Shown here piece by piece: positions 2,391 through 24,757 of a stretch of DNA of 64,000 bases (position 1 is its first letter; every line of letters begins with the position of its first letter). Origin of the DNA: a virus; UHGV virus genome UHGV-1351068; one strand, written 5' to 3'. The notes under the pieces are model-generated. The model saw only the letters and a list, made by a program, of their open reading frames with translations. It was not told where the DNA came from and searched no databases. The position numbers and the translations under genes were made by a program.

Positions 2391-2701
2391 GCCACTTTTA
2401 CCCTCACTACATGTAGATTTTTAATTTTTGCTTTGAGTTTTTCGCGCTCAACATCGCTAAGTGGTTCATACACTAGCTCAGTTGTTTTCCACCAAAGCAT
2501 TCCTTTGGTTTTGCTTTTCCCAGTAAAATTCCCTTTTGCTAATTTGTCTGTTAAAACCGACATTGTACGAATCCGTGCTTTATTGGCTGATTCTTCATTA
2601 GTGAAGACCACACATCGTTCTCCATCGTACATATCAGTTGTGACTGGATGGTCAAATCCGTCTTTATCCTTATACGCTACTACATATCCATAGTGTTGCA
2701 T
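2387..2701 (-). CDS. hypothetical protein, dda.1-position
   Basis: 104 aa ORF, start overlaps dda stop. Confidence 0.5.
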   Translation of the reverse strand: MQHYGYVVAYKDKDGFDHPVTTDMYDGERCVVFTNEESANKARIRTMSVLTDKLAKGNFTGKSKTKGMLWWKTTELVYEPLSDVEREKLKAKIKNLHVVRVKVA

Positions 2702-3456
2702 TACATTTTACCTCTCAAAAGTTGGAAGAAGGACGCAGTCAATGGAAGACCTTTTTTCAATTTTAACTTATCTAACATTGAGCATTTTTCTAACCGACGA
2801 AGTGAGCTAACAATTAGCCGTATTGATTGTACACGGATTTCAGCATCTGATGGACGATTCGGAACTGACGCTAAAATAGCAGATAACTTACGCTCAACTT
2901 TAGCTAATTCAGATTTACCACCGCTGATACGAGTTCTCAATGCATTAATAAGTTCTAAATCAGCCGAGGTTGCAGTTCCATTCTTTTCTTTTTGCACAAA
3001 TTGAGAAAGATGATTTTCACGATTGTGTAAGTTAGTTTTAATTGATGCGATAGTTTTTTCATACTCACGAATCTTTTCCCAACGAGAAGCTTCTTTATCA
3101 CTTGTTGGCTTAACAGAATCTGAAGAACGAACTATGCGTGCTGCGATTTCATTCGCTTTTCGCTCAAGTCCTTCAATAGTGTTATTTCCACGTAAAGTAT
3201 TATACTTTTGCTTGACAGGAATAACATTCCCCACTACATATCCTAAATCATTATTCCAGCGTTCAAGAGTCATGCTGTCAGGATGATTTCCTTTGACGGT
3301 GCCAAACTTTTCACCTGAGTATGCGCAATGAGTCTGTTGCATGATGTTAAACAGATACTCGGGAGTAAGATTGAACTCCTTGTGCCGACGTTGGGCAGAA
3401 CCTAAAGTTGTAATCAGACGAGTATAAACTTTAGCAGTTTCAGCAGTGAATTTCAT
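2701..3456 (-). CDS. srd: Srd-like (sigma-70-like decoy) protein
   Basis: 251 aa, same size and position as T4 srd between dda.1 and mod genes. Confidence 0.55.
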   Translation of the reverse strand: MKFTAETAKVYTRLITTLGSAQRRHKEFNLTPEYLFNIMQQTHCAYSGEKFGTVKGNHPDSMTLERWNNDLGYVVGNVIPVKQKYNTLRGNNTIEGLERKANEIAARIVRSSDSVKPTSDKEASRWEKIREYEKTIASIKTNLHNRENHLSQFVQKEKNGTATSADLELINALRTRISGGKSELAKVERKLSAILASVPNRPSDAEIRVQSIRLIVSSLRRLEKCSMLDKLKLKKGLPLTASFFQLLRGKM

Positions 3457-3535
3457 TATGTTTTCCTCAAAATGCTTTCGTCTTACGGACGGTATAATGG
3501 GTCTAGGTCCCTAGTTCTAGATAATCACTAGTTGA

Positions 3536-4225
3536 CTAAGCTATAGTAACACTAAAGTAGTCCATAAGTAAACCAGATTTTTCAACTTTGTTATGACCCA
3601 CCACTTTGAACTTAGTTCCCATCGGTAGCATCCTTTCTTGTTCTTTATCAATCATCTCGATGTCAGCGCTTCTGCGCTGAGCAATGTTATCAATCACGTC
3701 ATTTGGTCGCATGAATTCAGAATCTGGTGCAGTAATTAAAAGCGATTTCATGTTGGTATGATAATCAAATGATTGATGGCAATTATTGACTTCAATGACT
3801 ACAAATGTCGAGTAATGCCATTTGCCTGCAAACTCTCGGGCGATCGTTTCATCTGTTGTGAATGACGCCACCTTTCCAAAGTCAAATTGCTCTCCTTTAA
3901 TAAGAGCGTCATAAAAGGCTTTAGCCTCACGGCATGATAAACCTCTATAGAGAGTGTCTCTGTTATCAATTTGATGACGCCTAACGATAGAGTCAAGTTT
4001 CTTATGAAATTCTTCGCCAATCTTATTGTTCATGCACTGCCACAGAATTGACTGTTCTTTGCAGTCAAAACGATTAGCTAATGCTTCCCACACGCTTAAA
4101 TCATATAAGGGTAATCCTTTGCTTTCTCGCGCGAAGTTAAGAACATCAATGGAACGAATGGGTTCTTCGATAGGAATAACCTTTGATAATTTTACTGAAA
4201 TAGATGGGTTTAATAAAATAGCCAT
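3536..4225 (-). CDS. ADP-ribosyltransferase, ModA/ModB-like
   Basis: R-S-E ART motifs: TLYRG, SFTTD, EQE; T4 mod position. Start set to internal ATG at 4225 (GGAG RBS 7 nt upstream) because the early promoter -10 overlaps the longer ORF start at 4258. Confidence 0.7.
   Translation of the reverse strand: MAILLNPSISVKLSKVIPIEEPIRSIDVLNFARESKGLPLYDLSVWEALANRFDCKEQSILWQCMNNKIGEEFHKKLDSIVRRHQIDNRDTLYRGLSCREAKAFYDALIKGEQFDFGKVASFTTDETIAREFAGKWHYSTFVVIEVNNCHQSFDYHTNMKSLLITAPDSEFMRPNDVIDNIAQRRSADIEMIDKEQERMLPMGTKFKVVGHNKVEKSGLLMDYFSVTIA
3541..3573 (-). promoter_or_regulatory. early promoter (conserved family), srd
   Basis: minus strand GTTTAC -N19- TACTATAG. Confidence 0.5.
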
Positions 4226-4251
4226 GATATTCTCCATTTTGGTTACGAGAG

Positions 4252-10576: not shown

Positions 10577-10927
10577 TTAAAAGATTTTCCATAATGATTT
10601 TTTCTTGGTCTTTAATGCACTCTGGATTTGTTGTTTAACACAAGCTTCCACATGAGGATAAAGTTCATCCTTATGAGCTTCAGATGGTGTACTGAACTCA
10701 ATAGTTACTTCCCCCGAAGGAGAAATATTTAATTTATGAACATAAACCAAGTGTGATTGACCATTTAATTTTATCACAATTTCTTGGATAACAGTCTTCA
10801 TAGCTTCTTGGATTATTTCATGGCTTTTCTTGAACACTCGTTCTTGACGCTCGAAGTCTCCCTCTTCCGAGGGAGATTCTTGTTCAAATTTCTCGAGTTC
10901 AGATTCTAAATCAAACTCAGTCTTCAT
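10577..10927 (-). CDS. gene-40-position protein (116 aa)
   Basis: between uvsX and 41 as T4 gene 40. Confidence 0.45.
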   Translation of the reverse strand: MKTEFDLESELEKFEQESPSEEGDFERQERVFKKSHEIIQEAMKTVIQEIVIKLNGQSHLVYVHKLNISPSGEVTIEFSTPSEAHKDELYPHVEACVKQQIQSALKTKKKSLWKIF

Positions 10928-12092
10928 TCATGAAGTTCTCTAATTCATCTTCAACTTCAGCAGCTGATACTGAACCACTCTCAGGAAGTTTAACACCATC
11001 AACCTTAGTTGAAACTTTTGAGTTAATCATTTCTGCTACCGCTTCATCAACCGCAGCGTTTGAATCAATAGCACCCAACTGATACCGGGCTTTGATAGCG
11101 TCACGGAATGGCTCATGCTTAAACAGAGGACCCCAAAATTCCGTACTGCTCGTATCTTTTGCCCGCCAGGATTTTTCTTCACGAATCATCTCACCGGTTT
11201 CAACATCCAGGAATTCTCGTGCATACCATCCATTTTTCGGTTTAACCACAAACCCGATATCTAGAGCCATATCAAGCAGACCACTATATGGATCGATACC
11301 ACCATCGAATTTAACATCGATGAAGAACTTACTTTTCTCTTTGACAGTACGCGATTTCTCAGCGTTCAGGACAAACTGATATCCCTCAAGCTCAGAACCA
11401 TCTTTAATTTGACGTTTACCGATGATGAACACAGTATCCGCAGAATACATAGGACCTGTACCACCAGTCATTACCGTCTTACTGAACATCTCGATAGTCT
11501 CGATTGTGTGGTTAACCGCGACACAAGGAATGTTCTTAATAGAGAAGTAAGGAGTTACGATACGGAAGAGCGACTTCAGACTTTTCGCACGAGTCATATC
11601 TGCAACAGATTTCTCGTTCAAAGCATCTTCGGTTTCCTTTTTAGACGCCATGTTACCAATAGAGTCGATAAACACGATGACTTTTTCACCACGCTCAATA
11701 GCTTCAAGCTGGTTAACCATATCGATTTTTAATTGTTCAACCGACTGAACCGGTGTATGAATTACACGGTCAGGGTCAACACCCATAGATTTCAGATAAG
11801 CTGGAGTGATACCAAATTCTGAATCATAGAACAAGCAGACCGCATCAGGATACTTATTAAGATAAGCACTAACCATTGTCAGAGACATGTTAGATTTGAA
11901 GTGTTTAGATGGACCTGCGAAGATAGTCAACCCGGACTGCATACCACCATCCAACGCTCCACTGATTGCGATATTAAGCATCGGAATTTTGGTTCTAACT
12001 ACATCTTTCTCGTTAAAGAATTTTGATTTAGTCAGTTCTGCTGTCATTTTAGAAGTGGATGCTTTAATCAGGCGAGATTTTAAGTCAGACAT
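10917..12092 (-). CDS. uvsX: UvsX recombinase (RecA family)
   Basis: 391 aa, identical length to T4 UvsX; Walker A GPSKHFKS. Confidence 0.9.
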   Translation of the reverse strand: MSDLKSRLIKASTSKMTAELTKSKFFNEKDVVRTKIPMLNIAISGALDGGMQSGLTIFAGPSKHFKSNMSLTMVSAYLNKYPDAVCLFYDSEFGITPAYLKSMGVDPDRVIHTPVQSVEQLKIDMVNQLEAIERGEKVIVFIDSIGNMASKKETEDALNEKSVADMTRAKSLKSLFRIVTPYFSIKNIPCVAVNHTIETIEMFSKTVMTGGTGPMYSADTVFIIGKRQIKDGSELEGYQFVLNAEKSRTVKEKSKFFIDVKFDGGIDPYSGLLDMALDIGFVVKPKNGWYAREFLDVETGEMIREEKSWRAKDTSSTEFWGPLFKHEPFRDAIKARYQLGAIDSNAAVDEAVAEMINSKVSTKVDGVKLPESGSVSAAEVEDELENFMNED

Positions 12093-12174
12093 TCATTATA
12101 TTCCATAAGTCTCCATTATATTTTTCTCACAGGTTAAAGGATAGAGTAATTATATTACTTTGTTCTTGAAGCTA

Positions 12175-12426
12175 TTAACAGAAGTTCCATTTCTTCTTGG
12201 TGTTATAAACCACTGTTTCCATATCTATTTCGTAGTGTATTTTACATCCAACACACATGCCGTGCCACCAACAATGCATTCCATCTGAGCTAGTAGTTCC
12301 TTCGTGAACAAACTCGTCAGATTTACACACGAAGCATCTGAATTCTTCAGCTTTGAAAATGTTACCAGCTACGTCAGATTTATCATAGATGTTCATAAGA
12401 GGTCCTTGGAGGGCTTTCGCCCTCAA
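12175..12426 (-). CDS. small zinc-ribbon protein (83 aa)
   Basis: CxxC...CxxC pairs (CFVCKSD; CVGCK); start overlaps downstream GT gene. Confidence 0.45.
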   Translation of the reverse strand: MRAKALQGPLMNIYDKSDVAGNIFKAEEFRCFVCKSDEFVHEGTTSSDGMHCWWHGMCVGCKIHYEIDMETVVYNTKKKWNFC

Positions 12427-13265
12427 AGATATGGTTCTACCTTACCAAACTCATGGAAGGCCTGAGATTTCACTCGAGTGTTAATACACATACGAATTGA
12501 TTTCAGAGGTTCGTTATCACCGAATAAACCACGTCTTTCACCGTCTTTAGATTTCCAACGGGCTTGATTTGGGAAAGCAGCATGCAGCTGTTCAAGGGCT
12601 CTATTCTGGCGAGCAGTATCACGCTGTGTAGAACAACCACCAGGTGACTGCACCTTACCAGATTTAACGAGGTACTTAAACAGAGCCAGATGAGGATGAC
12701 CCATGTTAATTAATTTTAGAAAAGCATAAGCATCTTCGTTAAGGTCAATAATTCCGTAGCCAATGTCTTCTGCGGTAAGTTTAGTCAAATCATAGAAAGT
12801 ATTGGTGAACCCAAAGCTATTCTCACGATAATGACCCCAGCTTGATGTGATTTTGAAAATCGGTAAGCGAGCATGACCGTGATAATAACCACAATCCATG
12901 GCAGTCTCGACGTATTTGACCATATCATCAAATACCTCTTGACTCATTGCCTCGCCGACACCAAGTGGAACCCGGCGATCGTCGCGTTCACGAATTTCAG
13001 TCAGATGAATGGTCGTATCATCATCAAGCATCCAAATTCGTTGCCCTGCATACATTTCAGTAATCAGACGGCGAGTTCCCGCAATTCCATCGACATCATC
13101 GGGGACAGTAACGATTTTAGCAGCATGACCGTGCCAAGTTTCGTATGCTTCTTTTTCTGATTCACGTACTACAAGATGTGGAACATAACCTTCAGGAAAC
13201 ATAGTCAGGGCAGTAACTGCCCCGGCGCGCTTATAACTTGGAATTACAAACTGAATCATTTCCAT
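12423..13265 (-). CDS. glycosyltransferase, GT-A-like (DxD), in the T4 beta-gt slot; candidate hmC-sugar transferase
   Basis: 280 aa; N-terminal IPSYKR (GT2-like) and WMLDDDTT DxD motif; not T4 beta-gt (351 aa GT-B); lies between uvsX and gene 42. Confidence 0.55.
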   Translation of the reverse strand: MEMIQFVIPSYKRAGAVTALTMFPEGYVPHLVVRESEKEAYETWHGHAAKIVTVPDDVDGIAGTRRLITEMYAGQRIWMLDDDTTIHLTEIRERDDRRVPLGVGEAMSQEVFDDMVKYVETAMDCGYYHGHARLPIFKITSSWGHYRENSFGFTNTFYDLTKLTAEDIGYGIIDLNEDAYAFLKLINMGHPHLALFKYLVKSGKVQSPGGCSTQRDTARQNRALEQLHAAFPNQARWKSKDGERRGLFGDNEPLKSIRMCINTRVKSQAFHEFGKVEPYL

Positions 13266-13990
13266 TCACCTTTATAGTCTTTCTTTGCGATGTGAGTTTC
13301 ACCCGTGTGAGCATAATTATCTACGAGATAGAAATGTCGAGAATATACGTGCAAAGACCCGACGTTCCAAATAATGTCACCAACTGAATAATTTTTACCT
13401 GATGCATTCAGAAGTTTGGTTAACTGTTCCAAAACATAGAGCTGCCATGCATAGTCATTACGATATCCAAAGACGACATCATTCGAACGCATGTTTACCA
13501 CAGCATGCACACGATTATCACGAATCAGATACTGAACATTGTTAGTACACATGAAATCACTCATGCCATCGCGCTCAAAATCATACTGCATTTGAGGTCG
13601 TGTATAAATCATAATTCCGCGGCGAGAATCAGGATTATTGATAAGTTCTTTCGCACAGTTAGCAAACTGTGAATAGTTTTGTGTTGACCAAACTGCCCAG
13701 CCATAGTTAGAATTAATCTCGCCGTGTTTGGATGCAATTGCTTTCCAAATAGCTGGGGTTTCACCCGGAATATCTTTAACGAATAAACTTTGAGATTTAT
13801 ACCACTCAAGTTCACGAGCAATGTATCCATCATTAACTGCGCCAAAAATTAGGTTTTCATCTGCAATAAATGATGCACCTACGATTTCAATAGTCTTCAC
13901 ACCCGTCTTATCAATCACAAATTCTTTGTTGAGCAAAGCATCAGCGAATTCTTGACGGATATCTTGTACTGTCATTGGAGTTACAATCAT
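13256..13990 (-). CDS. 42: dCMP hydroxymethylase gp42
   Basis: 244 aa thymidylate-synthase-like; T4 gp42 246 aa; position before imm/43. Confidence 0.85.
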   Translation of the reverse strand: MIVTPMTVQDIRQEFADALLNKEFVIDKTGVKTIEIVGASFIADENLIFGAVNDGYIARELEWYKSQSLFVKDIPGETPAIWKAIASKHGEINSNYGWAVWSTQNYSQFANCAKELINNPDSRRGIMIYTRPQMQYDFERDGMSDFMCTNNVQYLIRDNRVHAVVNMRSNDVVFGYRNDYAWQLYVLEQLTKLLNASGKNYSVGDIIWNVGSLHVYSRHFYLVDNYAHTGETHIAKKDYKGEWK

Positions 13991-13998
13991 GAGACCTC

Positions 13999-14205
13999 TT
14001 ATTTAACTTGCTGGATAATAATTGTATTCTGCTGTGCGTTAGAAGCAGACCAAATCAGCGCAATTAACCAACCGATAATGGACCAACCGAATACTAGATT
14101 TGTGATAAAGATTCCACCCCGTGATTTATGCTTACGACTGCAAGCTACAAAGGTCGGCAAAAAATAGATGAAGAAAAGAATGATTAAACCAAATACTGCT
14201 TCCAT
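13999..14205 (-). CDS. imm: superinfection immunity protein Imm
   Basis: 68 aa two-TM protein FIYFLPTFVA...RGGIFITNLVFGWSIIGWLIALIWS, typical Imm family. Confidence 0.75.
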   Translation of the reverse strand: MEAVFGLIILFFIYFLPTFVACSRKHKSRGGIFITNLVFGWSIIGWLIALIWSASNAQQNTIIIQQVK

Positions 14206-14215
14206 GTTAATCTCC

Positions 14216-14659
14216 TCAGTTAGACATGCATTTGTTGTAGATGTGATTTTGGAGAGATTTTAACTGCTCCATACGTTGTTTATGCTCATTATAACTCAAT
14301 CCGCCGTTAGCAAAATCAGTTAAACGAATCTGGTCATTCACTGCTGCCGCTTGAGCAGTGCACGTACGTTCTTTTTGAGTTTTACGCAGACGCTTAATTT
14401 CTTCCAGTTCATGCTTATTCTGCTCAATCATGTCAAGTTCCATCGCAGACAGCTGACGATTAGGATTAGCTTTTTCTTTCGCCAACCGACGCTCAACCGC
14501 GAGCGATTCAGCAGAGACCTGGTTGCTAGCACGATAGTATCCTACAGTACCGCCAATTGCTCGCACCTGTCCAACAGAAGAAGCCGGGACGATATCACCT
14601 TGTGGCATTTGACAACCAGTCAGCGTGAGAGCAACAATAACAGCAAGTAACGATTTCAT
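14216..14659 (-). CDS. lipoprotein (147 aa), imm.1-position
   Basis: signal peptide plus lipobox LTGC; coiled-coil C-terminus; early promoter upstream (14690-14721). Confidence 0.6.
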   Translation of the reverse strand: MKSLLAVIVALTLTGCQMPQGDIVPASSVGQVRAIGGTVGYYRASNQVSAESLAVERRLAKEKANPNRQLSAMELDMIEQNKHELEEIKRLRKTQKERTCTAQAAAVNDQIRLTDFANGGLSYNEHKQRMEQLKSLQNHIYNKCMSN

Positions 14660-14728: not shown

Positions 14729-17437
14729 TTAAAAATCGAACATGTCAAGAAGAGACGATTTCTCTTCATAGTCTAACCCTGCCGCTTCAGACATACCCGT
14801 CAGAGGTTTAACGAACGATTTTTGGAACAGAACACTGTGGTCAAGCCACACTAGAACTTCCTGTCGGATTTCTTGTGGCAGCTCAGTGCCCGATGGCCAT
14901 GCCATGCATTTCTCACCGTACGGGTTACCTTCACGCAGCGGGATGACCATCACTTTCTCACCTTCCATGATTGGTGTTATACCTTCAAATCCTGCGGTTG
15001 CTCGGTTATATGCCAAAGCACCTTTAACGTGATATGGTGTACCTTTATCTGGATATCCTGCACCGTCATCATACTTACCGATGTTGTTTGCAGTCTTAAC
15101 TTCGGCGATTACTTTATAATCAAGTTCACGATATTCAGACTCAAACTGCTTATAATATTGCTGTAAAGATTCTTCACCTTCCTGCAGCATACGCCGAATA
15201 GATTCTTCCAATGCATTCTGAACAGCAGTTGGCGTAGAACTTTGCTGAGTTTCCATACCCATGATTTTCAGATGAGGTTCTGCATATCGAGTACCTTCCA
15301 TATCATACACGTTCAGAGCATATCGTTTCTTCGCTTTCCAGAATCCGCCAATGCCGTTTGACCCCAACGGAGGACAAGAAATAGCTTCACGGTCCATGAA
15401 CATTAAATGTTCTTTGTTGTTCATGTATTCACACATCTCACGATATGATTGGTCAATCCATGGTTCCATTTTCTTCTTGCCGAATTGGTTCAGGAATTCG
15501 ACCAAATCGTTAGTTTCTTTGAAACGCTCAAGACCTACCTTCTCGATAACCTTATCAACACAAACGTAAATTGAGTCAGTATCACCAGCTACTACAAACG
15601 AATGTCCTTCGGTGCCACATACCTTGTTGAGGTATTCATTAACTTTACGTTCAATCCATTGAATTGCCATTTGACCAAACAATGTGATTGCTGATGCGTT
15701 GCGCAAATCATAATAACGGAAGTAAATGTTACCCAATGCACCATAAAGTGAGTTGATCAGAATCTTACGGTTTAACTGGTTAGTGTTACCCAAGATTTCA
15801 GCGTGTTTACATTCAAACATCAGTTTGTCAAGACACTCTTCGGTATATGTCAGCAGTTCTGCTTTCATATCATCAGAGAAATCTTCATAGACATTAACTT
15901 CTGCGAATTTATCGATAGTTCCAAACTTCTTATCATTCAGAACCTTTTTAATCAGTTCTTGATTTCGTTTGGCACCCATCATTTTATTTTTCCACTCTTT
16001 ACGCTGATAAAATACCTTCGCGATTTCAACTGGAATGACACCATCTACATCTTTACGATACATCCAACCATTTGGTGAACATGAATATTCATCAGACGGA
16101 CGAGGAGCAGTCTTGTTAATGTACTCACCCAACGGATGAAGTTTAAACTGTCCAACGATGGTTTCTGGTGAAATATTAACTTGTCGAATGATTGACGGAT
16201 ACAGAGATGTCAAGTCAAACGACATGATATAACGGTATGCAGCAGGAACTGGTTCCTTAACATACGCACCAGGATATGACTGTTTAACATGAGAACGACT
16301 TTGCGGAATAACTTTGTCCTGTTCTTTCAGACTGTTAAAGATGATTGCGTCCCATGTTTTAATTGGACTCATTACACCTTGATACGGCATCTTCGCATAA
16401 TAAGACATCGAGATAGCCAGGTCAATAAATCCGCGAACAGCATCAATCGCTTGTACTGATTCAACGTCGATGATGTTATACGAAATATACCGTTGGTGAT
16501 TAGTTTCACGCAACTTATTGATCGGACCGTCATATGCTAATTTACCTTTCTTGGTTTCATAATAAGCAATGAAATCCAACTTATACGTCGGTTGGTTCGT
16601 GAAACTAAATTTCTTATACAAATCCATGTAATCAAGAATAGTCACACCCATGATAGAATAAATTTCTTTATCACCATACATGTTTGTGATAATCTTAGAT
16701 GAAACTTTGTTCAGAGGAGAGAACCGTTTCATCGTACGCTCACCAAGAATCTGTTTCACACGATTCATGATGTACGGAATATCAAATCCTTCAATGTTCC
16801 AGCCAGTAAAAATTGCTGGGCATTTCTGTTCCCAAAGATTGATGTACTCAAGCATCATTTCTTTTTCTGAATTGAACGGCATATATACTACGCGGTCAAG
16901 AATATGTTGTGGAACTTCATCACCGCCTTCGGAATCTAAACGAGCAGCGAGTTTCTTGTCCCACTCGGAAACAGAACCATAAAGAGAATGCAGTAAATCA
17001 AATACGTAGAACTTGTCATCAACCGAATCGTAATGAGTGATAGCATCAATTTCATATTCTGCTTTCATCGGGTCTGGGAATTGAGATGCAGTAACCTCAA
17101 TGTCACAGTTTGCGATTCGGATGAATTTTTTATTATAAACGATTTCTGAACCGTAAGTATCACTGATATACGCGAGTTTGAAATCATCCATACCCATTGC
17201 TTCCATTCCCATATCTTCCATACGACGCATCCAATCGCGGGCATCTTTCATAGTTGGGAATGTATTTTTCTTGCAATACTTGCCGTAGATATCTTTGTAC
17301 TTTGTTTCTTCCATGCAATGACTAAACATCACAGGAGAATACGGAACACGACGCATGCGTTCCTCACCAGTAGAATCGATATAACGTTCTACGATGTCAT
17401 TGCCTAGAGATTCAACGCTAATATAAAATTCTTTCAT
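14729..17437 (-). CDS. 43: DNA polymerase gp43 (family B)
   Basis: 902 aa; N-terminus MKEFYIS..RYID.. resembles T4 gp43 as I recall it (about 85% over the N-terminal stretch); exo and pol motifs (YGDTDS). Confidence 0.97.
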   Translation of the reverse strand: MKEFYISVESLGNDIVERYIDSTGEERMRRVPYSPVMFSHCMEETKYKDIYGKYCKKNTFPTMKDARDWMRRMEDMGMEAMGMDDFKLAYISDTYGSEIVYNKKFIRIANCDIEVTASQFPDPMKAEYEIDAITHYDSVDDKFYVFDLLHSLYGSVSEWDKKLAARLDSEGGDEVPQHILDRVVYMPFNSEKEMMLEYINLWEQKCPAIFTGWNIEGFDIPYIMNRVKQILGERTMKRFSPLNKVSSKIITNMYGDKEIYSIMGVTILDYMDLYKKFSFTNQPTYKLDFIAYYETKKGKLAYDGPINKLRETNHQRYISYNIIDVESVQAIDAVRGFIDLAISMSYYAKMPYQGVMSPIKTWDAIIFNSLKEQDKVIPQSRSHVKQSYPGAYVKEPVPAAYRYIMSFDLTSLYPSIIRQVNISPETIVGQFKLHPLGEYINKTAPRPSDEYSCSPNGWMYRKDVDGVIPVEIAKVFYQRKEWKNKMMGAKRNQELIKKVLNDKKFGTIDKFAEVNVYEDFSDDMKAELLTYTEECLDKLMFECKHAEILGNTNQLNRKILINSLYGALGNIYFRYYDLRNASAITLFGQMAIQWIERKVNEYLNKVCGTEGHSFVVAGDTDSIYVCVDKVIEKVGLERFKETNDLVEFLNQFGKKKMEPWIDQSYREMCEYMNNKEHLMFMDREAISCPPLGSNGIGGFWKAKKRYALNVYDMEGTRYAEPHLKIMGMETQQSSTPTAVQNALEESIRRMLQEGEESLQQYYKQFESEYRELDYKVIAEVKTANNIGKYDDGAGYPDKGTPYHVKGALAYNRATAGFEGITPIMEGEKVMVIPLREGNPYGEKCMAWPSGTELPQEIRQEVLVWLDHSVLFQKSFVKPLTGMSEAAGLDYEEKSSLLDMFDF

Positions 17438-18471: not shown

Positions 18472-19424
18472 TGCATCTCTACAACAAGTTGAATAAGCAT
18501 ATAAACCAAGTGTAATTCAATCGAAGCTGCTATGCCATGATACTGGTTATTTTCACCGATGATTTCATACATTCGGATAATGCTTGGGCCAGTAACCATT
18601 GTATACAGTTCCGAAGAAAGTTTATCTACGAACCAAGTATAGTCTGCTGCATATTTCGGGGCAAGAGCACGGAGTTCTTTGATGTTCTTAGTTTTAATAG
18701 CTTCGATGACATCTTCAATTGAACCACGGTCATTCAGAACGATAGACAAGATACCTGCATCAATCACACCCTTAGAAGAATAATGATCAAGCATGTTAAT
18801 GGTCTTACGGAATTCTGGAAAATTCTTTTTGACCAAAGCAGCTACAACTTTCTTATCTTCAACTACCACGCCTTCGTTTTCACAAATTGCGAGACAACGC
18901 TTGAGCATCTCGATTTGCATTGGCTTAACATCAGATGGAGATGGTTTACCAAAATTAATTACACGGCAACGAGACTGAAGAGGTTTAATGATACCATCAA
19001 GATTGTTTGCAGTAATGATAATAGTACAGTTTGTGCTATACGCTTCCATGAATGAACGCAGATGTCGTTGAGATTCTGCAAGACCTGCACGGTCAAATTC
19101 ATCAATAACGATAATTTTCTGCTTGCCTGCAATAGAGGCAGAACTCGCAAATGCAGTTAACGGTCCACGAACGAAATCAATCTTACAGTCAGAACCATTC
19201 ACGAACATCATTTCAGCATTAATGTCATTACACAATGCTTTAGCTACTGTAGTCTTACCAGTACCAGGAGAAGTGCTATGGAGGATTAAATGAGGGATTT
19301 TACCTTTTGCTACTAGAGCTGTAAAGATTTCTTTATCTTCAGCAGGAAGTACACACTCAGAAATAGTACCTGGACGATACCGCTGTTCCCACATGAAGTC
19401 TGCTTCATTTACTGTCAATTTCAT
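18462..19424 (-). CDS. 44: clamp loader ATPase gp44 (AAA+)
   Basis: 320 aa; SPGTGKTT Walker A, IDEFD, SRC motif; closely matches the T4 gp44 sequence as recalled. Confidence 0.95.
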   Translation of the reverse strand: MKLTVNEADFMWEQRYRPGTISECVLPAEDKEIFTALVAKGKIPHLILHSTSPGTGKTTVAKALCNDINAEMMFVNGSDCKIDFVRGPLTAFASSASIAGKQKIIVIDEFDRAGLAESQRHLRSFMEAYSTNCTIIITANNLDGIIKPLQSRCRVINFGKPSPSDVKPMQIEMLKRCLAICENEGVVVEDKKVVAALVKKNFPEFRKTINMLDHYSSKGVIDAGILSIVLNDRGSIEDVIEAIKTKNIKELRALAPKYAADYTWFVDKLSSELYTMVTGPSIIRMYEIIGENNQYHGIAASIELHLVYMLIQLVVEMQWK

Positions 19425-19451
19425 TTATATTTCCTCATTCAGAATTTGGGT

Positions 19452-19465
19452 GGGGCCGAAGCCCC
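19452..19465 (-). terminator. UUCG hairpin between 44 and 45
   Basis: GGGGC-TTCG-GCCCC. Confidence 0.5.
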
Positions 19466-19472
19466 GAAATTA

Positions 19473-20174
19473 TTACTCAAAATCAAAGGTACTGTCTGCT
19501 TCCATTGCTACTACATAAGAGGCTGATGCACCTTCAAATTTCGCTGCAGTCTGTTTCTTGGAGCCATTCATTTTTGCCCACAGCATCAGTTTATAATCGC
19601 CGATAGTCATCTTCATATTGCTCATGTTGATGATAAAGTTGAAGTTACCCTCACCTTCATAATCACCGAGTGTCAGAGAATACTTCGGACGGGTCAGTGC
19701 AGCATCTTCTACTTTGTTATAACCACGCAGAACAATTTTACCATCAACATTGGTGATAGCAATTGTGTCAATCTGCATGCCACGAGATACTCGCATCAGC
19801 TGTTGCAGGTCTTCACCTTTAAAATCGATAATTACGTTTGCCACCGGGAATGGGATTGGTTTAGTCGGGAACACGATTGTGCTCGGGTCAGCTGCTGGCC
19901 AGAAGATAGTTGAGCGAGCATCTTTAATTGCCAGATTACCATCTTCCTGCATGATAATATCTGCATCATCACCAACCAAAGACAGAATGCTCAGGAAACT
20001 GTTCAGGTCATAAATTGCTACATCAGTATCGATGGTATCAGAAATTGTTGCTTCAGCATAAGTCGTACCATTAACAGCACGAGTCATGATAAAATTGCCA
20101 GGTTTCAGCATGATACCAGAGTTGATGGTGGAGAAGTTTTTCAGAATGTTCAGAGTTTCTTTAGAGAATTTCAT
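19473..20174 (-). CDS. 45: sliding clamp gp45
   Basis: 233 aa; T4 gp45 228 aa; position. Confidence 0.85.
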   Translation of the reverse strand: MKFSKETLNILKNFSTINSGIMLKPGNFIMTRAVNGTTYAEATISDTIDTDVAIYDLNSFLSILSLVGDDADIIMQEDGNLAIKDARSTIFWPAADPSTIVFPTKPIPFPVANVIIDFKGEDLQQLMRVSRGMQIDTIAITNVDGKIVLRGYNKVEDAALTRPKYSLTLGDYEGEGNFNFIINMSNMKMTIGDYKLMLWAKMNGSKKQTAAKFEGASASYVVAMEADSTFDFE

Positions 20175-23560: not shown

Positions 23561-24757
23561 TTATTTTGTCATTAACTCAAATTGTTCTTTAAAGCAATGC
23601 TCAGAATCTTGGTGTTCTACCAGGAATTCAAATGCTTTATTTCGCTCTTTATCATAGAGCTTCTGGTCAGATGACAGATGTTTCATTCGTTCAAAGACTT
23701 CATTTTTATTTTCATCATTCAACCACAGAATGCCAGAATCATGAGAAGTCAATGGCTTTCCATCAACCCGGAATTTCAAAGCATCACCAGTAGCTTTATG
23801 GAACACAGGAATAGTTCCACAAGCGCCTAGTTCTAAATGCGTGTATTCCAGAGAACGCTCAAGGAATTTATCCGGAAGACGTGACAGCTGATAGCCAAAT
23901 CCAGACTGAGACATACGCTCAAGCATCTCAGAGTTAACATATCGGTCAAGAACTTGAGGATTCAGACCTGGTCCAGTTTTAACCTGATGATAATGACGGC
24001 AATAATCGATTTCATAGCGTTCTTTGATGTTAATAAACGCAGGACTGCGTTCTAACCCTTCCAAGATAGTCGTTTTGCCTGCGGGACGCAGATGACTTTC
24101 ATGGAAATCAAACATCAAGAAATAGCCTTTCCACGTAGTAGTACGACCAATCCAACGATGGATATCAAAGTCAATAGCAGAGAAGTCTTTCCAATACTTA
24201 TCACGAATTGCTTTGATGTTCATAGCAGGTTGAAAGTTATAAACTGGAGGAGCTGAGTCAGAATCATCAAAGAAACTCAACCCGCCGCTTGGAAAATATT
24301 CTTCCATTAGCACGGTATTAAAATCGCCGTTTGAGCTATGACTAAACAGTACATCAGCACGCTTAACGGTTTCTTCAAGACCAGCATTTCTACGAAGTGA
24401 CAAGGCTCTATGGTCATGTTGATATACGACTACCCGAACCTCAGGTTTAATGTTCTCTATGAGCTTCTTATAGTTATCAATCGCTGCTTCTGGAGCGTTG
24501 ACAGCAGGTACTGAGTTGATGATAAGAATGTCACATGCGTTAAGCAGAGATAAAGTCTTATCGTAGTCATCTGCAAGAGACACAGGAATAGTTACATCTT
24601 TATAGCTATGTGCTCTATTACGAGTAAACGCTTTATCTTTAGCGTAAATGATATTTACTTCATGGCCATGTTTTACTAACCACTCACGATGCTCGAGACT
24701 GAACTTGGTTACGCCACATCCCTCAAGTCCGCGAGCCATTAAAATATTAATCTTCAT
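23561..24757 (-). CDS. a-gt: DNA alpha-glucosyltransferase
   Basis: NILMARGLEGCGVTKFSLE... strongly resembles T4 alpha-gt; start set at MKINIL (24757), because a MotA-box middle promoter lies inside the longer ORF-track 5' extension. Confidence 0.9.
   Translation of the reverse strand: MKINILMARGLEGCGVTKFSLEHREWLVKHGHEVNIIYAKDKAFTRNRAHSYKDVTIPVSLADDYDKTLSLLNACDILIINSVPAVNAPEAAIDNYKKLIENIKPEVRVVVYQHDHRALSLRRNAGLEETVKRADVLFSHSSNGDFNTVLMEEYFPSGGLSFFDDSDSAPPVYNFQPAMNIKAIRDKYWKDFSAIDFDIHRWIGRTTTWKGYFLMFDFHESHLRPAGKTTILEGLERSPAFINIKERYEIDYCRHYHQVKTGPGLNPQVLDRYVNSEMLERMSQSGFGYQLSRLPDKFLERSLEYTHLELGACGTIPVFHKATGDALKFRVDGKPLTSHDSGILWLNDENKNEVFERMKHLSSDQKLYDKERNKAFEFLVEHQDSEHCFKEQFELMTK

Follow-up and report, generated by a model that had tools for sequence, protein, structure and literature searches.

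A TAGT-family glycosyltransferase occupies the slot between gene 42 and uvsX

We analysed a 64,000-nucleotide stretch of the virus genome UHGV-1351068 (the window), which comes from the genome of a T4-like phage of Klebsiella, genus Jiaodavirus (taxonomy as in the RefSeq record of phage KPV15), and focused on a glycosyltransferase (GT) gene and a small cysteine-rich open reading frame (ORF) that lie side by side in it. All genes of the locus are on the minus strand. Gene 42, which encodes deoxycytidine monophosphate (dCMP) hydroxymethylase (13256-13990, -), is followed by the transferase ORF (12423-13265, -), an intergenic RNA hairpin that overlaps the transferase stop codon (12409-12424, -), a Shine-Dalgarno sequence AAGGA directly after the hairpin (12403-12407, -), the small ORF of 73 amino acids (aa) with a putative zinc-binding product (12175-12396, -), and the recombinase gene uvsX (10917-12092, -), the downstream boundary of the transferase slot. 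Genes 40 and 41 come next in the minus-strand gene order. Several Klebsiella phages, among them ValerieMcCarty04/05 and vB_Kte_K65PH164, share the region 12100-13300 with 100% identity; about 150 records match it at 95-100% identity, with Kpn6N at 97%.

As the original prediction had stated, an ORF of 280 aa, counted from its first ATG, carries both an N-terminal IPSYKR and a WMLDDDTT motif and sits between uvsX and gene 42. The third codon of this ORF, an ATG at 13259, is the most likely start of the transferase, whose length is then 278 aa. This ATG overlaps the gene 42 stop codon as ATGA, so that the transferase is coupled to gene 42 upstream. The T2 protein starts at the matching methionine (MIQFVIPSY), and both the KPV15 annotation and P0001, the representative of a metagenomic cluster, have a length of 278 aa. 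Inside the 5' coding region (13206-13224, -), about 35 nucleotides (nt) past the start, a simple consensus scan marked a GC-rich, terminator-like hairpin, CGGGGCAG-TTA-CTGCCCTG, which may be a chance match.

The protein scores 37.8 bits for the Pfam family TAGT (PF20691), whose gathering threshold is 27.5, with residues 5-210 aligned to positions 2-205 of the 205-position profile, and it matches PHROG 842, named 'beta-glucosyl-HMC-alpha-glucosyltransferase', at E=1e-80. Its identity to the beta-alpha-glucosyltransferase (hereafter beta-alpha-GT) of T2 is 63.9% over 277 aa (E=1e-116), and to that of T6 63.8%. A tblastn search with the transferase matched 689 phage records, about 136 of them Klebsiella. 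No sequence-level match was returned by the search of the Protein Data Bank (PDB), and the NCBIfam scan gave nothing for the transferase or for the small ORF. A word-indexed protein search yielded only 10 relatives for the transferase and 3 for the small ORF; an exhaustive HMMER search retrieved 324 transferase relatives at E<=0.001 and was the source of the deep alignment.

In an 80-sequence alignment that reaches down to about 20% identity, conservation is complete or no lower than 90% at R11 (of IPSYKR), D79-D80-D81, D176, G207-G208 and R213 (the DDD motif being residues 79-81 of the 278-aa form). The AlphaFold2 model built from this alignment is confident (predicted local distance difference test (pLDDT) 94.1, predicted template modelling score (pTM) 0.92), and in it the DDD motif comes right after beta-strand 74-78, the canonical position of the DxD motif in a GT-A fold. 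A Foldseek search of the model against viral models led to TAGT proteins. The protein is thus a DxD-type nucleotide-sugar transferase of the GT-A fold and not a T4-like beta-glucosyltransferase (beta-GT) of the GT-B fold, as originally proposed. We give next to no credence to the idea that the ORF encodes something other than a glycosyltransferase, or is a decayed remnant. Nothing was found in favour of it: the ORF is intact and 95-100% conserved across about 140 Jiaodavirus genomes, its model is a confident GT-A fold, and all family-wide catalytic motifs are kept.

Companion enzymes and the predicted modification pathway

The product of gene 42 (gp42) matches the T4 dCMP hydroxymethylase over its full length (phmmer against PDB, T4 1B49/1B5E family, E=1e-117). 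The alpha-glucosyltransferase (alpha-GT), a GT-B enzyme of 398 aa encoded at 23564-24757 (-), matches the T4 DNA alpha-GT 1XV5 at E=4e-182 over residues 1-398, and the KPV15 annotation also names it alpha-glucosyltransferase. Both enzymes had been reported in the original prediction, together with the view that the DNA is based on hydroxymethylcytosine (hmC). This view holds well, since the phage has an alpha-GT as well as a gp42 of the T4 type; its DNA is very likely hmC-based. A T4 beta-GT was not found in the window by tblastn (best E 0.83). In the phage collection at large, the T4 beta-GT query matched 126 records; no Jiaodavirus was among the 40 matches listed, where the one Klebsiella entry was the Karamvirus-like KaAlpha, and the ten commonest organism names among the matches (each with at least 3 records) did not include Klebsiella. 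With gp42 and alpha-GT present and beta-GT not found, the gene set of gp42, alpha-GT and TAGT is the T2/T6 configuration.

The resemblance to the T2/T6 beta-alpha enzyme suggested at the outset is therefore borne out by 64% identity, a TAGT match above threshold and the same slot in the genome. The analysis itself shows the homology, the fold, the conserved motifs, the synteny, and which partner enzymes are present or absent. We consider it probable that the 278/280-aa ORF represents, in Jiaodavirus, the ortholog of the beta-alpha-GT of T2/T6 (g-gt; TAGT), completing gentiobiosyl-hmC after the alpha-GT. In such a pathway, gp42 would make hydroxymethyl-dCMP, which would be incorporated into DNA as hmC. 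The alpha-GT (23564-24757) would then move glucose from uridine diphosphate (UDP)-glucose onto hmC in alpha linkage, and the TAGT would put a second glucose, beta-1,6-linked, on part of the alpha-glucosyl-hmC to give gentiobiosyl-hmC. The UDP-glucose-dependent beta-1,6 glucosylation is a predicted activity of the TAGT of the window; donor sugar, acceptor, linkage and the fraction of cytosines modified would all follow by orthology.

Published work on the relatives supplies the background for this assignment. The T2/T6 beta-alpha-GT belongs to PF20691, adopts a GT-A fold by AlphaFold3 and is sister to GT2 (PMC13216743). The TAGT of T6-like phages is syntenic with the T4 beta-GT, and liquid chromatography-mass spectrometry detected gentiobiosyl-hmC in T6-like phages with alpha-GT and TAGT (PMC13390438). 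Deletion of the beta-alpha-GT gene in T6 leaves DNA with only alpha-glucosyl-hmC, which becomes sensitive to Brig1 and BapA (PMC11078745; PMC13160076).

The enzyme had also been described as a sign of an altered hmC modification. That framing does not stand, as a 2026 Nucleic Acids Research survey finds alpha-GT or beta-GT plus TAGT to be the majority arrangement in T-even phages and the T4 combination of alpha-GT and beta-GT to be rare (PMC13216743). An arabinosyltransferase, offered earlier as an alternative, is indirectly disfavoured by the 64-72% identity to beta-alpha-GT/TAGT orthologs and by the partnership with an alpha-GT and a T4-type hydroxymethylase instead of an RB69-type 5-hydroxy-dCMP pathway; arabinose-pathway genes were not searched for. 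The RB69-type arabinosyl-5-hydroxycytosine system would call for a ThyA homolog that serves as 5-hydroxy-dCMP synthase, for arabinosyltransferases and for UDP-arabinose genes; the ThyA homolog of the window is the gene 42 product, with its full-length match to the T4 hydroxymethylase.

Acceptor specificity and the anomer made by the partner enzyme

Several observations weigh against a simple transfer of the T6 chemistry to the window. The TAGT of the window is closer to those of CC31 (71%), Ursula (72%) and Merlin (69%), which come from Karamvirus/Moonvirus phages with a beta-GT partner, than to the enzymes of T2/T6 (64%), which have an alpha-GT partner. Its acceptor specificity is therefore unreadable from sequence similarity alone. 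In addition, a search of the papers covered for measured DNA modification in Jiaodavirus returned only a genome-based prediction and no nucleoside analysis of virion DNA, and gentiobiosyl-hmC in these phages should be taken as a prediction for the genus. The second glucosylation ranges from 5% in T2 to 72% in T6 (PMC11078745), and its extent in the window phage is unpredictable.

These points raise the alternative of a TAGT-family enzyme with a chemistry other than that of T2/T6, one that would act on either anomer or on bare hmC, or use another linkage or donor, so that the adduct would not be gentiobiosyl-hmC. In its favour, the nearest TAGTs (CC31, Ursula, Merlin) come from phages in which beta-GT is the first transferase, and the literature search found no chemical data on Jiaodavirus. 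The published survey likewise leaves it unresolved whether the TAGTs paired with an alpha-GT and those paired with a beta-GT are one anomer-indifferent enzyme or two kinds, and many TAGTs occur with neither GT (PMC13216743). On the other side stand the 64% full-length identity to the genetically validated T6/T2 enzyme, the same motifs and the same T4-like alpha-GT partner. Moreover, the TAGTs of Jiaodavirus, Tequatrovirus and Karamvirus are roughly equidistant (64-71%), as are the flanking gp42 proteins (69-72%), a pattern that fits vertical descent of one orthologous enzyme.

We compared the TAGT loci of the window (12423-13259), CC31 (3001-3837) and T2 (2507-3349). The flanking proteins of the window are equidistant from CC31 and T2 (gp42 70.5% versus 72%; UvsX 89% versus 88%), and the TAGT itself is nearer to CC31, which indicates that TAGT similarity does not go along with the anomer made by the partner enzyme. 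For this reason alone, we keep a chemistry unlike that of T6 at a small probability and regard it as unlikely. Similarly doubtful is a broader version, in which the TAGT would be anomer-indifferent or make a non-gentiobiosyl adduct, and the cysteine-rich protein, kept in six T-even genera where the cytosine-modification cluster ends, would assist DNA hypermodification or UvsX as an accessory factor not recognised so far.

The small cysteine-rich ORF is a separately initiated gene

The original prediction placed next to the transferase a translationally coupled CxxC...CxxC protein of 83 aa. The small ORF is indeed co-oriented with the transferase and adjacent to it; the length and the coupling did not hold up. 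The 83-aa form (mechanical ORF 12175-12426) hangs on a TTG within the transferase stop codon (TTGA). Homology supports the ATG at 12396 as the probable start, giving 73 aa: PHROG 11273, a family of unknown function, matches residues 1-73 on its 73-position profile (E=1e-39), relatives are annotated or called at 73 aa, and the homolog of Erwinia phage Cronus begins at the same methionine. Between the transferase stop codon and this ATG lies a 26-nt spacer with the hairpin, and AAGGA precedes the ATG. Given its own ATG and AAGGA and the hairpin spacer, the small ORF is independently initiated and coupling by overlap is unlikely.

The spacer hairpin (GAGGGC-GAAA-GCCCUC) has a 6-bp stem and a GNRA loop, with an RNA folding free energy of -17.8 kcal/mol and a z score of -3.9. 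Divergent metagenomic relatives (L009, L010) retain its sequence; covariation was sought, and the stem proved identical in the relatives at hand. No run of T follows it, so it is not an intrinsic terminator, and it could affect mRNA stability or modulate translation.

Across four genera, C21, C24, C42, C48 and C51 as well as H31 are invariant in the small protein, with C21xxC24 and C48xxC51 as pairs. This set fits a zinc-binding module, for which 'zinc ribbon' is a motif-level label. The small ORF matched no Pfam or NCBIfam family, and its AlphaFold2 model, built from a 4-sequence alignment, is unreliable (pLDDT 44.8).

We then weighed the proposal of a zinc-ribbon partner, by which the 73-aa protein would serve the transferase alone, as its subunit or partner, and might for example target it to DNA. 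Adjacency, common orientation and a spacer of only 26 nt speak for such a role, as does the retention of this arrangement in a divergent relative with 75% identity in the small protein. Besides, the small ORF stands at the 3' end of the cytosine-modification cluster in every genus examined. The co-occurrence data argue in the opposite direction. Homologs of the small ORF were found in 164 phage records versus 689 with TAGT, and some 525 of the 689 TAGT records are without it, including T2, T6 and about 500 Tequatrovirus records with TAGT. In T2 the transferase directly adjoins uvsX, and no Escherichia phage record, T6 included, has a homolog. The T6 enzyme is functional in its absence (PMC11078745).

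Conversely, the small ORF occurs in Cronus, Serratia phage CHI14, Yersinia phage phiR1-RT and Edwardsiella phage PEi20, and in none of them was a TAGT detected in the gene cluster that carries it. Cronus has the order gene 42 - small ORF - uvsX with no GT between; in CHI14, phiR1-RT and PEi20 the small ORF follows a kinase-like gene in a different cytosine-modification cluster. A Pfam scan found no match for the two CHI14 genes that separate a thymidylate-synthase homolog from the small ORF, and in PEi20 the small ORF is present but unannotated. In Winklervirus, Roskildevirus, Tegunavirus and Kanagawavirus the homologs lie directly upstream of uvsX, whatever modification genes precede them; locus positions of homologs are 3495-3684 (L002), 3501-3713 (L003), 3519-3695 (L004) and 3501-3710 (L008). 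What the homologs have in common is a position just upstream of uvsX, where the modification cluster ends. The separate Shine-Dalgarno sequence, and the hairpin that parts the small ORF from the transferase stop codon, likewise speak against a dedicated partner. On co-occurrence and on context in five other genera we rejected the small ORF as a partner of the transferase, a role that we hold to be very improbable. The small ORF is a separately initiated gene, positionally conserved upstream of uvsX and not specifically tied to the transferase.

Comparison with known systems

The beta-alpha-GT of T2/T6 was reportedly cloned by Winkler and Rueger in 1993. The transferase of the window resembles it in length (278-280 aa), in 64% full-length identity, in the GT-A fold and DDD motif, in its place right downstream of gene 42, which its start overlaps (by 4 nt in T2), and upstream of uvsX, and in its companions, gp42 and alpha-GT with beta-GT absent. 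The differences are that the window phage is a Klebsiella Jiaodavirus, whereas T2/T6 are Escherichia coli Tequatrovirus; that the window has the extra 73-aa cysteine-rich ORF between the transferase and uvsX; and that the Jiaodavirus product is a prediction, whereas the T6 product is genetically backed.

The TAGTs of CC31, Merlin and Ursula (Karamvirus/Moonvirus) are the closest outside the genus (69-72%) and occupy the same slot after gene 42. Unlike the window TAGT, they have a beta-GT immediately downstream and no alpha-GT in the phage (PMC13216743); in the window phage no beta-GT was found in the window, and the alpha-GT lies about 11 kb away. The T4 beta-GT (PF09198, PDB 1JG7) shares the neighbourhood (42 - b-gt - segA - uvsX in T4) and also acts on hmC DNA with UDP-glucose. 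In contrast, it has no sequence similarity to the window transferase and a GT-B rather than a GT-A fold, and it glucosylates bare hmC, while beta-alpha-GT extends alpha-glucosyl-hmC. Cellular GT2-like inverting transferases of the GT-A fold (TarP 6H1J, WrtF 9OMH, GalNAc-T1) are only 7-17% identical to the transferase, and enzymes of this type have protein, lipid or polysaccharide acceptors, not DNA.

In GenBank and RefSeq, the transferase product is already annotated in records identical to the window. Annotations and publications thus cover the gene together with its family, its fold and its occurrence in Jiaodavirus, and no new biology is added: what the window has here is an ordinary TAGT, from a known family, in the commonest T-even configuration. 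The second glucose has biological consequences. In T6, DNA with gentiobiosyl-hmC withstands the glycosylase Brig1 in vitro and the deglucosylase BapA, and is still cleaved by GmrSD-type enzymes (PMC11078745, PMC13160076, PMC13216743). For therapeutic Klebsiella phages of the genus Jiaodavirus, the knowledge that they carry alpha-GT and beta-alpha-GT helps in predicting the host defences that they evade.

Neighbouring genes

UvsX is 82-89% identical to the proteins of T4, T2 and CC31. Some Jiaodavirus relatives (e.g. Roth67, Merci) have a GIY-YIG or HNH homing-endonuclease gene adjoining the transferase, and in T4 the counterpart is segA, between b-gt and uvsX (T4 locus 3571-4236). This intergenic neighbourhood looks like a recurrent insertion site for homing endonucleases.

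Upstream of gene 42 lie imm (13999-14205, -), an ORF of 147 aa (14216-14659, -) and gene 43 (14729-17437, -). In the 147-aa ORF, hypothetical in the KPV15 annotation, the N-terminus is lipobox-like (MKSLLAVIVALTLTGCQ), suggesting that the phage encodes a lipoprotein. Gene 42 is intact in the window (244 aa); in the KPV15 RefSeq record (19312-20045) it is given as two coding sequences, and gp55, motB, rIIA and nrdG also appear in fragments there. These breaks probably stem from sequencing frameshifts in that record.
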